The notes under the pieces: generated by a model
What the model was told of the DNA's origin: nothing
The model's input: the letters and a program-made list of their open reading frames with translations, nothing else
Database searches by the model: none
Source of the DNA: a virus
Taxonomy: Duplodnaviria > Caudoviricetes
Length of the DNA: 64,000 nt
Strand: one strand, 5' to 3'
Virus record (IMG/VR): IMGVR_UViG_2706795930_000001
Span: 1-64,000 of that record
Shown here: positions 5,072-63,123 of the stretch, one piece after another
Numbering within the stretch: position 1 is the stretch's first letter
How the letters are laid out: each line of letters starts with the position of its first letter
Program-made: the position numbers and the translations under genes

Positions 5072-5143
5072 TGCCGCATAGCTCAATTGGCAGAGCTCCC
5101 GACTATTAACGGGTGGGTCCTGGTTCGAGTCCAGGTGCGGCAA
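5072..5143 (+). tRNA. tRNA-Asn-like gene with ATT anticodon and a 1-nt deletion in the anticodon stem (possibly a pseudo-tRNA); no encoded CCA
   Basis: Acceptor TGCCGCA/TGCGGCA, D arm GCTC/GAGC, T arm CCTGG-TTCGAGT-CCAGG; anticodon arm CCCGA-CTATTAA-CGGG. Confidence 0.75.
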
Positions 5144-5374
5144 CTGAGAGGCCCCAGCAGGGAGCTGGGGCATAACATCGCGGCATGCACTCCGCGCTCT
5201 CTTGAAAACCTCTCCCGCCCAAGAGGATAAGTCAGGTCGCGCCTGGCATGGGCACAGCCTCACGTGTTGATCGTACGAAGCTGCGTGGGGGGTCCGAGGG
5301 TCTAGCGGGACCTCGTAAATATCTCCCGCGAAACTTGCGCGCCAGTGCGGGAAGTTGGGTGGCGTCGAGAGCCC

Positions 5375-5402
5375 TTGAATCTCGTTGCCTGTCTCGTAAT
5401 CT
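5375..5402 (+). promoter_or_regulatory. Putative SigA-like promoter TTGAAT-16-TAATCT with an operator-motif copy in the spacer
   Basis: Hexamer match; motif copy at 5383-5397. Confidence 0.4.
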
Positions 5403-27064: not shown

Positions 27065-27104
27065 CCAACCTGTTGCGTATCTCGTACTACAGCAAGGAAT
27101 CCCG

Positions 27105-39532: not shown

Positions 39533-39895
39533 CTACCCGGCCGCCGCCTCATACTGCTCGATGATGGCATCGGGGACTCGACCCTTCGGGTTGACCTCGA
39601 TGTCATTGTTCTTTGCCCACTCGCGGACATCCTTCATGGTGTACGAGCCATTGCTGACCGCCCCGCCGCCTCCGTTTGTCGGGGCGCCTGTGGCGGGCTG
39701 TCGCTTCCGTCCGCCGACACGGGTTGCGGTCTCGGTCATCTTCTTGAACTGCTTCTCTAGCTTTGCGAAATTACTCGGGCTGACCTGGAGTTCGTAGTCG
39801 ATCCCGAGCCATGAAACCGGCACGCGCACCATGGTTTCCTCGTCGAGCAGCTTGCCGTCCATGTCGTCGTAGTATTCGATTCGGTCGCGACGCAC
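39533..39895 (-). CDS. lsr2: Lsr2-like nucleoid-associated protein
   Basis: DDMDG...IDYEL..S..N N-domain; VREWAKNNDIEVNPKGRVP C-domain (KGR in place of the RGR AT-hook); AAAGGA RBS. Confidence 0.92.
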   Translation of the reverse strand: MRRDRIEYYDDMDGKLLDEETMVRVPVSWLGIDYELQVSPSNFAKLEKQFKKMTETATRVGGRKRQPATGAPTNGGGGAVSNGSYTMKDVREWAKNNDIEVNPKGRVPDAIIEQYEAAAG

Positions 39896-39922
39896 GTCTA
39901 TATCCTTTCGGTAAGTTTCATT

Positions 39923-39988
39923 AGCCACCCTACAAATCGGCCCCGGACGGATCTCACTGGGTGATCCGGCCGGGGCACTATGGTGGCT
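39923..39988 (-). promoter_or_regulatory. Long hairpin in the lsr2 leader overlapping uORF4
   Basis: On the minus strand AGCCACC/GGTGGCT, GCCCCGG/CCGGGGC and CGGATC/GATCCG form nested stems. Confidence 0.65.
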
Positions 39989-39998
39989 CTTCCTGCAC
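39978..39998 (-). CDS. uORF4, MQEEPP*
   Basis: GAGGA-6nt-GTG; ends CCA CCA TAG. Confidence 0.5.
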   Translation of the reverse strand: MQEEPP

Positions 39999-40007
39999 TT
40001 GCGGTCC

Positions 40008-40061
40008 TCACGTTGCACGGCGATTGTCGAGTGCTCGTGATGGTGGGTCTCGGGCGTTCAT
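40008..40061 (-). CDS. uORF3, MNARDPPSRALDNRRAT*
   Basis: GAGAGGAG RBS, ATG start; CCA CCA. Confidence 0.6.
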   Translation of the reverse strand: MNARDPPSRALDNRRAT

Positions 40062-40070
40062 ATTCTCCTC

Positions 40071-40118
40071 TCACTGTCGGGCCGGCGATTCGTTTCCTGG
40101 TGGGTCTCGTGCGTTCAA
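40071..40118 (-). CDS. uORF2, MNARDPPGNESPARQ*
   Basis: AAGGAG-5nt-TTG; CCA CCA. Confidence 0.6.
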   Translation of the reverse strand: MNARDPPGNESPARQ

Positions 40119-40136
40119 TCCGTCTCCTTCCTCTCG

Positions 40137-40184
40137 TCATCTCTGTCGGGGCGGGTGGGCTGGTGGGCCTCTCGGGTTGAACAT
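40137..40184 (-). CDS. uORF1, MFNPRGPPAHPPRQR* (alternative in-frame ATG at 40193)
   Basis: GAGG before ATG; CCA CCA. Confidence 0.55.
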   Translation of the reverse strand: MFNPRGPPAHPPRQR

Positions 40185-40228
40185 GAACCTCATCTCTAAG
40201 TGACTGTGTTGCGTAACTTGTGAGACAG

Positions 40229-40257
40229 ACATTAGACGAGGTTTCCGAGACATGCAA
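40229..40257 (-). promoter_or_regulatory. SigA-like promoter TTGCAT-17-TAATGT for the uORF-lsr2 transcript
   Basis: Exact 17-bp spacing; the -35 lies inside an operator-motif copy. Confidence 0.65.
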
Positions 40258-40313
40258 CAGGTGGGCCAGTGTTTGCTGCGTCACTATCCGAAGAAGGGGT
40301 CCGACTGGCACTG

Positions 40314-40343
40314 TTGCGTGTCTCATGCGTGCTAGGTTAGAGT
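40314..40343 (+). promoter_or_regulatory. Divergent promoter TTGCGT-18-TAGAGT for the accessory operon
   Basis: Hexamer match; overlaps motif copy 40312-40326. Confidence 0.5.
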
Positions 40344-40383
40344 CGCCAACGACGCCAGATCACGTACACGAGGAGGCACACAC

Positions 40384-40695
40384 TTGCCAGAAGCGCAGCG
40401 CAGGAACATCGAAGACCTCAGCGCCCCAGAGATTTACGCGGGGTTCGAGGCGGTCCTCACATGGATGGACGCCGCCGGCCGTATCGTCAGCATGCTCGAC
40501 GGCTTCGGCGAGAACCAGCCCGCAGAACGCATCGAGGCGGTGCTCGATCGACTCAACACCGTCATCAACAACGCGGTCGAGGGGGTTCCCAATAGCACCC
40601 CGATCAAGGACGCGAAGGCCCCGGTTCTGGTCAGCGATGGCCGCGAGCACGACATCGTGGTCGACCTGATGGCGCGCAGGGGGCCCAGTGCCTGA
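40384..40695 (+). CDS. Hypothetical protein
   Basis: GAGGAGG RBS, TTG start. Confidence 0.7.
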   Translation: MPEAQRRNIEDLSAPEIYAGFEAVLTWMDAAGRIVSMLDGFGENQPAERIEAVLDRLNTVINNAVEGVPNSTPIKDAKAPVLVSDGREHDIVVDLMARRGPSA

Positions 40696-40948: not shown

Positions 40949-41127
40949 GCCCGTCGCTCGGTCCGATCACTCAGATCTTCACCCACGACGAGAAGCGACG
41001 CCTGGGTCGATGCCAGGACTGTGAGTGGCACCTGCGCACCCAGGGCCACCACCCGCACTGCACGCAACGCAAGCCGAAACCGAGGAAAGGAGGAGGACGC
41101 CAATGGCCACGATCGCAGAAGCGGTAG
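40945..41127 (+). CDS. Small Zn-finger-like protein
   Basis: RCQDCEWH..TQGHHPHC; TTGA overlap. Confidence 0.6.
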   Translation: MSPSLGPITQIFTHDEKRRLGRCQDCEWHLRTQGHHPHCTQRKPKPRKGGGRQWPRSQKR

Positions 41128-42488
41128 CCGCCCAGTCATCCTCGTCGCCATCACAGGGCGGGGGACCACGACCAACGGTCACCACGCCCGACAATCCGAT
41201 TCGCGTCAAGGAGCTGAACGCGAAACTCGGCTCCTGGATCTCGCGACTGGGGCACATCCACGTCGAGGGCCAGGTCACCCAGATCAACAAGAAGCCCGGA
41301 CAGCGCACCGCGTACCTCACGCTGCGTGACCCCCAGGCGACCGCGTCCATCAACATCACCACCGACCCGGGCAAGATCCCTGCCGGACTCACCGACGGCG
41401 ACCGGGTCATCATCTTCGGCAAGCCCAACCTCTGGCAGGGCCGCGCCAGCCTGTCGCTCCGGGCCCAGTCCATCGACCAGGTCGGCGAAGGTGATCTCCT
41501 CCAGCGCATCGAGAAGTTCCGCCAGGTCCTCCGCGCCGAGGGGGCAACACGCCCCGAGCTCAAACGCCTTCTGCCACTTCTTCCGCGGCGGGTTGGCCTC
41601 ATCACCGGCTCGGACTCCGCGGCCCAACGCGATGTCATCGCCATGGCCTCCGAGCGCTGGCCGTCGGTCGACTTCCACGTCATCAACACTCCCGTCCAGG
41701 GACCGGCCACCGAGCGCGAAGTCGTTAAGGCTCTGGCCGCGCTCGACCGCATGCCCGACATCGACGTCATCATCGTCGCCCGCGGCGGCGGCAGCGTCGA
41801 AGATCTCCTGCCGTTCAGCGGCGAGAAGATCGTGCGCGCCGCGATCTCCTGCACCACGCCTGTCGTCTCGGCCATCGGCCACGAGCCTGACAATCCCGTC
41901 CTGGACGACGTCGCCGACTTCCGAGCCGCAACACCGACCGACGCCGCGAAGAACGTCGTGCCCGACATGGTCGCCGAGCTGTCCGAGATCCTGGTCAAAG
42001 AGGAGAACATCGGGAAGGCGATCGCCCGGAACATCGCAGCCGAGCGGACCGAGCTGAGCATCAAGCACACGCACGTCGACAGCCTCGGCGTCGCGATCGT
42101 CGGCCGAGAGCGGGATTCCCTGGCCACCAGTCGATCCAGCCTGCAGTGGATCATGGAGCGCAACGTCACGGCCGAGCGCAACAGCCTCGTCCGTCTCATC
42201 CAGCAGGCGCGCTACTGCAACCCCGGCAACCGCATCGAGAACGAGTACGCCTCACTCGCCGGCATCCGCGAGCACCTCGACGCCGTATCCCCGCGGTCCG
42301 TCATGGAACGCGGATTCTCCATCGTCGCCGACGCCAAGACCGGCTCGGTCATCACCGCCGGCGACCAGGTGTCCGGCGGCGCACGACTCACCATCACCTT
42401 CGCCGACGGCTCATCCAGAGACGTCATGGTGATGGCCGCTGCCCACGCAATCGTGGGCGTCACAACCGAAGGGAGCGAACAGCAATGA
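41103..42488 (+). CDS. xseA: Exodeoxyribonuclease VII large subunit
   Basis: OB fold (VEGQVTQ...YLTLRD), RVGLITG...AAQRDV, DVIIVARGGGSVEDLLPFS, VVSAIGHEPD, RAATPTDAA, RGFSIV. Confidence 0.95.
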   Translation: MATIAEAVAAQSSSSPSQGGGPRPTVTTPDNPIRVKELNAKLGSWISRLGHIHVEGQVTQINKKPGQRTAYLTLRDPQATASINITTDPGKIPAGLTDGDRVIIFGKPNLWQGRASLSLRAQSIDQVGEGDLLQRIEKFRQVLRAEGATRPELKRLLPLLPRRVGLITGSDSAAQRDVIAMASERWPSVDFHVINTPVQGPATEREVVKALAALDRMPDIDVIIVARGGGSVEDLLPFSGEKIVRAAISCTTPVVSAIGHEPDNPVLDDVADFRAATPTDAAKNVVPDMVAELSEILVKEENIGKAIARNIAAERTELSIKHTHVDSLGVAIVGRERDSLATSRSSLQWIMERNVTAERNSLVRLIQQARYCNPGNRIENEYASLAGIREHLDAVSPRSVMERGFSIVADAKTGSVITAGDQVSGGARLTITFADGSSRDVMVMAAAHAIVGVTTEGSEQQ

Positions 42489-42661
42489 CGTACGAAGAGG
42501 GCAAGGCCAAGCTCACCGCCATCGTCCAGGAGATCGAGCGTGGGGGACTCTCCCTCGACGACCAGCTCGCGAAGTGGAAAGAGGCCGGCGAGTTGATCGA
42601 CGAGCTGGAGAAGATGCTCGGCACGTACGAGACCCGCGTCAAGGAAGGGGCTGCAGCGTGA
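42485..42661 (+). CDS. xseB: Exodeoxyribonuclease VII small subunit
   Basis: MTYEE...L..IVQEIERGGLSLDD.L..W..A..L; directly after xseA. Confidence 0.88.
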   Translation: MTYEEGKAKLTAIVQEIERGGLSLDDQLAKWKEAGELIDELEKMLGTYETRVKEGAAA

Positions 42662-42870
42662 ACCCACGTAGCTACACCCGGTTCATCGTCGTCCCCGGCC
42701 TGGCCTTTTGTGCCGTCCTGGGTCTCATCGGCTACACCCAGGCGTCAAGCGGCGGAGGTCAGGTCGCTCTCGCGACCGTGACGCTGCTCCTCCTCGTCAC
42801 ATTGCTGGCCGTCAGCTTCATCGTCAGTGGAGTGTTGCGTGTCTCGTACAGAAGGGTCGGCCGCCGATGA
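42658..42870 (+). CDS. Small 2-TM membrane protein
   Basis: Two hydrophobic helices; GTGA overlap. Confidence 0.65.
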   Translation: MNPRSYTRFIVVPGLAFCAVLGLIGYTQASSGGGQVALATVTLLLLVTLLAVSFIVSGVLRVSYRRVGRR

Positions 42871-54620: not shown

Positions 54621-54691
54621 CGTGCGTTCAGCCTATCTCATGAGACACGCAACGCACCGGATCTTGGGAACCGGTGCGCTGCGTAGTTGTC

Positions 54692-57381: not shown

Positions 57382-57462
57382 TTCGCTCCTCGAAACTCTC
57401 TGGGTCCATACCCTAACACGTATGAGACACGCAACAGTGAATCTCGGGAAGCGGTTGAGGGT

Positions 57463-61671: not shown

Positions 61672-61995
61672 TCAGATCACTTCCGGCTGCCCGTACGAGA
61701 CATGCATCACCCGGCGCACGAGAGAAGGTGCGTAGCCCTGAATCCCAAACCTCTGCGCGTCGGCGATCAAGTCTCGGAGCAGGTCGAAAGCAGCATTCCG
61801 GTCGGAGGTCCACCACTCGTCGCTCCAGCGGTCGGCGCCGGATGGTCGCTCGTCGGCATTGACGATCTGGCCGGATGGCAGGCGAACGGAGTACTGCGAA
61901 GAGGTTGCTACGACCGGTGGCTCCGTCGCCGGGGGAACCTTGCCCGGCGCCTTGTATGGGTGGGTGGTCAGAAGCATCGTCTTGCTGGCGTCCAT
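61672..61995 (-). CDS. Hypothetical protein
   Basis: AAGGGG RBS. Confidence 0.65.
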   Translation of the reverse strand: MDASKTMLLTTHPYKAPGKVPPATEPPVVATSSQYSVRLPSGQIVNADERPSGADRWSDEWWTSDRNAAFDLLRDLIADAQRFGIQGYAPSLVRRVMHVSYGQPEVI

Positions 61996-63101: not shown

Positions 63102-63123
63102 CACGAGACATGCAACACAGAAA

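Follow-up and report, generated by a model that had tools for sequence, protein, structure and literature searches.

The closest described relatives of the element reported here are the arrest peptides with RAPP or RGPP motifs, a group that includes ApdA, ApdP, ApcA, upstream open reading frames (uORFs) of Streptomyces lividans, CruR and, with RAGP, SecM. The element itself is an array of four mini-ORFs with paired proline codons in the leader of a phage-encoded lsr2 gene, on the minus strand of a 64,000-nucleotide stretch of viral DNA (positions 1 to 64,000 of IMG/VR record IMGVR_UViG_2706795930_000001; hereafter the window), and we propose that this leader may act as a switch that reads ribosome occupancy. 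The array shares with the RAPP/RGPP peptides an Arg-x-Pro-Pro core, in which Gly, Asp and Ser at x belong to the forms described in print as active or permissive; it likewise stands upstream of the controlled gene and on the same strand, and the arrest-peptide family is present in Actinomycetota (PMC12992588, PMC10951233, PMC7897499). Two of these papers present RAPP and RGPP as robust arrest cores that are refractory to elongation factor P (EF-P), RDPP and RSPP as partly permissive for arrest and depleted from proteomes, and Arg-x-Pro-Pro uORFs as functional in Streptomyces (PMC12992588, PMC10951233). The preliminary description of this DNA had linked the units to the RGPP/RAPP arrest motifs, which agrees with the literature. 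Known RAPP-type members are tens to hundreds of residues long, mostly bear export or membrane signals, have their motif close to the C-terminal end and are freed from arrest when the nascent chain is pulled, whereas the peptides in the window have 6-17 residues, with the motif at codons 4-8, and no pulling force is possible. The array differs further in being tandem (one to five units), in being phage-encoded and in always using CCA-CCA for the two prolines.

A second comparison is offered by the leader-peptide attenuators (trp, his, pyrBI and the whiB7 uORF), which resemble the array in having a short leader ORF on which the position of the ribosome decides the state of a downstream hairpin; for the array, translation is judged from the SD (Shine-Dalgarno) sequences, the starts and the conservation of codons. 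The mycobacterial whiB7 uORF, which operates in the order to which the host belongs, governs a terminator; when mutation introduces a di-prolyl motif there, the outcome is read-through and constitutive whiB7 (PMC10274678). The array departs from this class in that no antiterminator was found, several ORFs are present rather than one, an arrest motif takes the place of a run of codons for a single amino acid, and the U-tract is weak; direct occlusion by the ribosome, in the manner of pyrBI, would need no antiterminator. A third class, the EF-P-dependent polyproline leaders, comprises mgtP in the Salmonella mgtCBR system and engineered HisL-PPP reporters, in which consecutive proline codons in the leader couple the speed of translation to downstream transcription (PMC5299641, PMC5021804, PMC8129111), and polyproline stalls change the formation or use of intrinsic terminators (PMC5021804). 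These are single enterobacterial ORFs that respond to EF-P, whereas the Arg-x-Pro-Pro class to which the array belongs is reported to be EF-P-resistant and only its last unit is EF-P-like. The idea of EF-P sensing put forward in the preliminary description is therefore unlikely to apply to the Arg-bearing units, given that RAPP and RGPP resist EF-P in published work; the Arg-less last unit is the one place where it is plausible. Among phages, the bar minigenes of lambda also offer a likeness to the array, being very short ORFs led by a Shine-Dalgarno (SD) sequence whose effect comes about through the fate of ribosomes and tRNAs and not through the peptide. They differ in having only two or three codons and no Pro-Pro, in acting in trans by peptidyl-tRNA drop-off, and in not being placed in the leader of a gene.

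The virus record has 92,580 bp and a GC content of 64.7%, and the window covers its first 64 kb. The source is a Bantam-type Gordonia phage, of which the window holds the left 64 kb, and the nearest records are those of the Bantamvirus phages SpeedDemon (97.8% identity) and DatBoi (88.6%), both over the lsr2 leader. The gene that would be regulated, lsr2, occupies 39533-39907 on the minus strand if its SD sequence is included (AAGGA, 39907-39903); its coding sequence runs from a GTG at 39895 to 39533 and specifies 120 aa. A credible promoter can be read at 40229-40257 on the same strand, with TTGCAT (40257-40252) as the -35 element, a 17-nt spacer and TAATGT (40234-40229) as the -10 element, which would place the transcription start near 40222 and give a leader of about 327 nt (39896-40222). 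A strict sigma-70 scan did not call this promoter, and the same layout recurs in the Gordonia phages Mollymur (TTGCGT-17-TAGTGT) and Daredevil (TTGCGC-17-TATTGT). The promoter and a leader of about 330 nt had been part of the preliminary description, and their coordinates were verified, as were those of the uORFs, the CCACCA hexamers, the hairpin and lsr2, all on the minus strand.

The leader holds four mini-ORFs that share one frame and are spaced 63, 57 and 60 nt apart, with their CCACCA hexamers at 40161-40166, 40098-40103, 40041-40046 and 39981-39986. Mini-ORF 1 (40137-40184) begins with ATG, reads MFNPRGPP with the RGPP core at codons 5-8 and ends at TGA (SD duplex -6.3 kcal/mol); mini-ORF 2 (40071-40118) begins with TTG, reads (M)NARDPP with the RDPP core at codons 4-7 and ends at TGA (-9.4 kcal/mol); mini-ORF 3 (40008-40061) begins with ATG, carries the RDPP core in MNARDPP and ends at TGA (-9.1 kcal/mol); and mini-ORF 4 (39978-39998) begins with GTG and reads (M)QEEPP before a TAG, with no Arg, with a weak SD duplex of -5.7 kcal/mol and with its Pro-Pro codons forming the outer 5' arm of a hairpin. 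All four tiny ORFs that had been described are present; the second and fourth start with TTG and GTG and not with ATG. The SD sequences of the second and third are stronger than those of the first and fourth. A pattern of a start codon, six or nine nucleotides, Arg, three nucleotides and CCACCA occurs four times in the 92.6-kb genome, where about 0.6 would be expected, and three of the four occurrences lie in the lsr2 leader. No Rfam family matched the leader at gathering or relaxed thresholds. The gaps between a stop and the next start are 18, 9 and 9 nt in the window, short enough that a ribosome leaving one unit could begin again on the following one, and the mini-ORFs may thus form a relay of termination and reinitiation rather than independent units. 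In Daredevil the corresponding gaps are 17, 21 and 11 nt where the frames permit.

Syntenic lsr2 genes in other Gordonia phage genera were found by tblastn with Lsr2. The leaders of Mollymur, Daredevil, OneUp, BrutonGaster and Smoothie have no blastn match to the window leader, yet they hold the same units, consisting of an SD, a start codon, a variable residue, Ala or Thr, Arg, one of Asp, Glu, Gly or Ser, and CCA-CCA. In Mollymur five units run together in a single frame with no stops, and every one of them has an SD and a start to itself; there are three units in OneUp, three in BrutonGaster and one in Smoothie. The five units of Daredevil are in different frames, spaced 56, 60, 61 and 68 nt, and each keeps its SD, start and motif, which indicates that every unit is self-contained. 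In the 13 standard units, drawn from six non-redundant phages of five genera, the start is ATG in 10, GTG in two and TTG in one; codon 2 is variable; codon 3 is Ala in 11, using all four GCN codons, and Thr in two; codon 4 is Arg in every unit (CGA in six, AGA in four, CGG in two, CGC in one); codon 5 is Asp (four), Glu (four), Gly (three) or Ser (two); and codons 6-7 are CCA-CCA in all 13. The cores are RGPP, RSPP, RDPP and REPP in the relatives, and RGPP, RDPP and RDPP in the window. A distinct form of the first unit, M-x-x-[P/S]-R-G-P-P, is kept in the window, Mollymur and Daredevil, and last units without Arg are found as VEEPPG in Mollymur, VKHPPST in Daredevil and LTPAPPEKD/T in OneUp and BrutonGaster. 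The SD duplex energies of the 16 Arg-bearing units range from -6.3 to -12 kcal/mol and those of the five last units, all weak, from -4.8 to -5.7 kcal/mol, against a background of random start-like triplets with a mean of -2.9 and a 5th percentile of -7.2 kcal/mol. The array precedes lsr2, or a PHROG-13269 gene followed by lsr2, in the same orientation in five genera, and 11 of the 12 pattern matches in five related whole genomes fall in the leader of the lsr2 operon. None of the six related GenBank records inspected has an annotation for the mini-ORFs. Scans for the pattern in viral, genome and metagenome collections, which sought only arrays of at least three units, returned no other such array among the matches listed, where filtering left only chance tandem repeats, a CRISPR array and an IMG/VR copy of Daredevil; a protein-seeded search of viral contigs with Lsr2 likewise found nothing.

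This comparison bears directly on whether the units are translated at all. The leader contains direct repeats with a 20-nt core about 60 nt apart, and together with the invariant CCACCA they might be taken for untranslated DNA or RNA sites bound by a phage or host protein, such as an operator or iteron with CCCACCA as its core. We consider this very unlikely: each unit combines a strong SD with a valid start placed 15 or 18 nt upstream and at no other distance, and does so only on the strand of lsr2; the codons for Arg and Ala differ at their wobble bases; units in different frames remain intact; and the genera do not share the remainder of the 20-nt repeat. A DNA repeat kept without its frame, start and ribosome-binding site (RBS), which would argue against translation, was not seen in the related leaders; the preliminary description had suggested looking there for a unit kept at the peptide level, and frame, start, RBS and motif are indeed kept in five genera though the DNA cannot be aligned. 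Variation across the units falls mostly at wobble positions. The pattern supports the view that the mini-ORFs behave as translated units under selection at the level of both peptide and codon.

The constraint ends with the Pro-Pro pair. Relative to DatBoi, the segments made up of SD and core differ by 5-12%, the tails by 9-29% and the flanks by 28-37%, and the hairpin segment at 39923-39977 has no substitution in its 55 positions (0%). All the DatBoi changes that fall within uORFs are non-synonymous and all lie in the tails, with the stop of uORF1 lost, which indicates that only the first seven or eight codons are constrained. That mini-ORFs encode active peptides, for example proline-rich ribosome inhibitors of the apidaecin type, is scarcely credible on this evidence: the tail of uORF1 is proline-rich, and the preliminary description had likened uORF1 to the end of apidaecin, but the tails after Pro-Pro vary in sequence and length, the changes in the DatBoi tails all alter the residue, and stops come and go. 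The lack of tail conservation contradicts the apidaecin-like proposal.

The codon itself is also conserved. CCA-CCA is present in 21 of 21 units once the first and last units are included, while among the likely genes of the phage CCA accounts for 8.3% of Pro codons and the pair CCA-CCA for one of 51 Pro-Pro dicodons, which bears out the earlier remark that this spelling is atypical for the phage. Judged from these comparisons, the constancy of CCA-CCA is a matter of selection at the nucleotide or tRNA level, in addition to selection on the peptide. The tRNA-Pro(UGG) supply proposed in the preliminary description as an input fits all units, through this absolute conservation and through the finding that CCA tunes Pro-Pro pausing in E. 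coli, where its tRNA is limiting (PMC8129111); the same may hold in Gordonia. For comparison, Arg-x-Pro-Pro occurs three times in the phage proteome against 3.7 expected, the proteome being too small to judge avoidance. The invariance of CCA-CCA beside neighbouring codons that vary could also be explained if the array acted in trans, as an abundant short RNA closed by the terminator-like hairpin, on which each arrested ribosome would lock up two tRNA-Pro(UGG) and one ribosome, depleting CCA decoding, with lsr2 expressed by read-through. The lambda bar minigenes are a precedent for the sequestration of tRNA by a phage, and a possible second promoter after the hairpin in OneUp, BrutonGaster and Smoothie would also suit such a sponge. 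We nevertheless regard it as quite unlikely, because phage genes themselves use CCA for 8.3% of their prolines and depletion would harm the phage too, because the tie between the array and the lsr2 operon in all five genera points to control in cis, and because Bantam-type phages have no room for a separate lsr2 promoter. A related proposal, which we hold to be similarly doubtful, is that the units could trap tRNA and ribosomes by a stall so close to the start that no second ribosome would collide and trigger rescue; the resulting selective starvation for CCA might affect, for instance, AT-richer foreign or defence genes, alongside the Lsr2 silencer.

Downstream of the array lies a GC-rich hairpin of 66 nt (39923-39988, minus strand), with an inner stem of 14 bp (39940-39953/39963-39976) and an outer stem of 7-10 bp (39923-39932/39979-39988), followed by CGATTTGTAG. 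It is terminator-like and ends 28 nt before the lsr2 start, leaving the SD of lsr2 uncovered. Hairpins with different stem sequences occupy the same place in Bantam-type phages, Mollymur, Daredevil, OneUp, BrutonGaster and Smoothie, and a consensus fold has compensatory changes in seven of 15 pairs; the hairpin that the preliminary description had placed at the CCA-CCA of uORF4 is thus conserved as a structure. The stem begins 0-6 nt after the last Pro-Pro, and the stop of the last unit lies inside the hairpin or between its stems, in all four lineages that have a last unit. The tails of the OneUp and Mollymur hairpins are T-richer than that of the window. The leader otherwise shows no structure in excess of that of shuffled sequence (z = -0.78), which fits a translated region. 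No promoter-like hexamers were seen in the 28-nt gap between the hairpin and lsr2 in the window, so that lsr2 transcripts there must pass through the hairpin. In the CQ-cluster phages a candidate second promoter, placed after the hairpin and ahead of the PHROG-13269 gene, can be read as TTGCCT-18-TAACAT in OneUp and BrutonGaster (loci ~945-975 and ~950-980) and as TTGTGG-17-TAGTAT in Smoothie (locus ~945-975), and if it is real the array would be a separate transcription unit there. At the same Smoothie locus, gene 63 (888-1478) has an annotated N-terminus that crosses the terminator-like hairpin (~911-940), and PHROG 13269 matches only residues 44-196 of its product; its annotated start is probably too far upstream.

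A hairpin without a good U-tract might serve another end than termination. Arrested ribosomes and the hairpin together could shield both the long leader and lsr2 mRNA against RNases or Rho, setting the half-life of the message rather than switching a terminator. The units are 56-69 nt apart, and one stalled ribosome on each would leave only short naked stretches; stalled ribosomes near the 5' end are known to stabilise mRNA, as in ermC. Such a protective role leaves unexplained why the stop of the last unit is placed within the hairpin, and a Rho-loading site in the leader was rejected, C being in no excess over G there. We treat mRNA protection as a minority possibility, on the unlikely side.

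Weighing these observations, we think it slightly better than an even chance (about 0.55) that the lsr2 leader is a cis-acting switch, or attenuator, that reads ribosome occupancy. The conserved promoter would make a leader of about 327 nt, in which three strongly initiating mini-ORFs would each bring a ribosome to an Arg-x-Pro-Pro core at codons 4-8, where the rare codon CCA, used twice, would demand two tRNA-Pro(UGG) in succession. A ribosome stalled 15-18 nt from the start codon would cover its own start site, with one ribosome per unit and none queued; on the fused units of Mollymur, ribosomes would read on from one to the next. The last mini-ORF, with its weak SD and no Arg, ends in the hairpin just before the lsr2 RBS, and a ribosome there would have to melt the hairpin, which most likely terminates or otherwise limits the transcripts entering lsr2. 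The dwell time of ribosomes on the arrest units and on the last Pro-Pro would then set the amount of Lsr2. Ribosome stalling, termination by the hairpin and the direction of control are steps that we infer, and the direction could follow either of two logics. A ribosome paused on the last Pro-Pro or on the stop could block the hairpin and turn lsr2 on; alternatively, arrests upstream could delay ribosomes and uncouple them from RNA polymerase, so that the hairpin would form and lsr2 would be off.

Several observations weigh against such a switch. Its account leaves the role of several units in series unexplained. Published RAPP-type arrests depend on some residues that precede the core on its N-terminal side (PMC12992588), and in the array only three or four residues precede Arg, with no room for a signal peptide. 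REPP, the form found in OneUp and Smoothie, receives no mention among the active or permissive forms in the passages of PMC12992588 consulted. At the level of RNA, the tail CGATTTGTAG has too few T for the terminator rule in the window, and folding of the whole leader gave no conserved alternative that could act as an antiterminator, the hairpin being the only strong structure. Smoothie is an exception: it lacks a last unit of the Arg-less kind, and the one uORF it has stops about 25 nt upstream of the hairpin. In OneUp, BrutonGaster and Smoothie, a promoter-like sequence may separate the hairpin from the gene that follows. Gating of the units by a suppressor tRNA was a separate idea and was rejected, as no unit has a stop between its start and its motif, and the two tRNAs of the phage, a Met(CAT) and an odd one, have no stop-reading anticodon. 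The odd tRNA gene lies at 5072-5144 on the plus strand and scores 54 bits against Rfam; its anticodon arm is irregular, with a 4-bp stem and the 8-nt loop ACTATTAA (a 6-nt loop by ARAGORN), no amino acid can be assigned to it, and it is not an obvious stop-codon suppressor.

The setting of lsr2 is that of a lone leftward gene between rightward tail genes and the rightward genes of the right arm. Since the first of the latter begins at 40384, the interval 39896-40383 is a divergent control region. The product has both an N-terminal dimerisation and a C-terminal DNA-binding domain (PF11774, 38.7 bits with a cut-off of 29.6; PF23359, 45.7 bits with a cut-off of 26.9) and matches PHROG 1223 (E = 7e-32), and its homologues are annotated as Lsr2-like in SpeedDemon, DatBoi, Mollymur and Daredevil. 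A 142-aa ORF in another frame of the same region (39898-40326, minus strand) was rejected as a gene, as the DatBoi substitutions in it look neutral, the frame is broken in Daredevil, and it has no similarity to the OneUp gene upstream of lsr2. Phages of the Bantamvirus type are temperate (PMC5559632, PMC10865867). In the temperate Nevillevirus phages Rabbitrun and Neville, lsr2 follows the immunity repressor and a gene for a membrane protein, shares their strand and is not accompanied by Pro-Pro mini-ORFs, an arrangement that suggests expression of lsr2 during lysogeny in some Gordonia phages.

The -35 element of the lsr2 promoter belongs to a 14-nt motif, TGTTGC[ACG]TGTCTC, of which there are about 25 copies genome-wide on both strands. 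Those in the window lie at 79-92, 5385-5395, 27070-27083, 40247-40260, 40311-40324, 42832-42845, 54642-54655, 57424-57437, 61697-61710 and 63105-63118. The copy at 40311-40324, on the plus strand, is an inverted repeat of the lsr2 copy, 64 bp from it, and faces the divergent gene at 40384. Copies of the motif often precede a TAnnnT hexamer resembling a -10 element, and one perfect palindromic pair is found at genome position 78083-78119, past the window; the motif could mark a family of phage promoters or else be a stoperator-like operator for a repressor. The phage also has genes for the two subunits (xseA-like and xseB-like, 41025-42661, plus strand) of an exonuclease VII-like enzyme, annotated in SpeedDemon only as "exonuclease". 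These genes had raised the question of host DNA at a prophage end or att site, a reading that is ruled out, as the record is a complete 92.6-kb phage and its relatives have these genes too.

A literature search found no published arrays of Arg-x-Pro-Pro units in phages, and a survey of phage Lsr2 genes does not mention the mini-ORFs. On the evidence of sequence comparison, the array is most likely an undescribed translation-sensing switch. If so, the recently recognised biology of RAPP/RGPP arrest would be carried beyond exported bacterial proteins, to phages and to peptides of no more than six to eight residues, and the array's serial tandem design, combined with a strictly kept rare codon, would offer a test case for the minimum length of an arrest peptide, for the effect of tRNA identity and for release without pulling. 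Working as we propose, the units would also be compact parts for the control of expression in Mycobacteriales. For the phages themselves, the array suggests that phage-encoded Lsr2, a xenogeneic silencer that has been implicated in lysogeny and in the conflict between phage and host in actinobacteria, is subject to a layer of control that had gone unrecognised.

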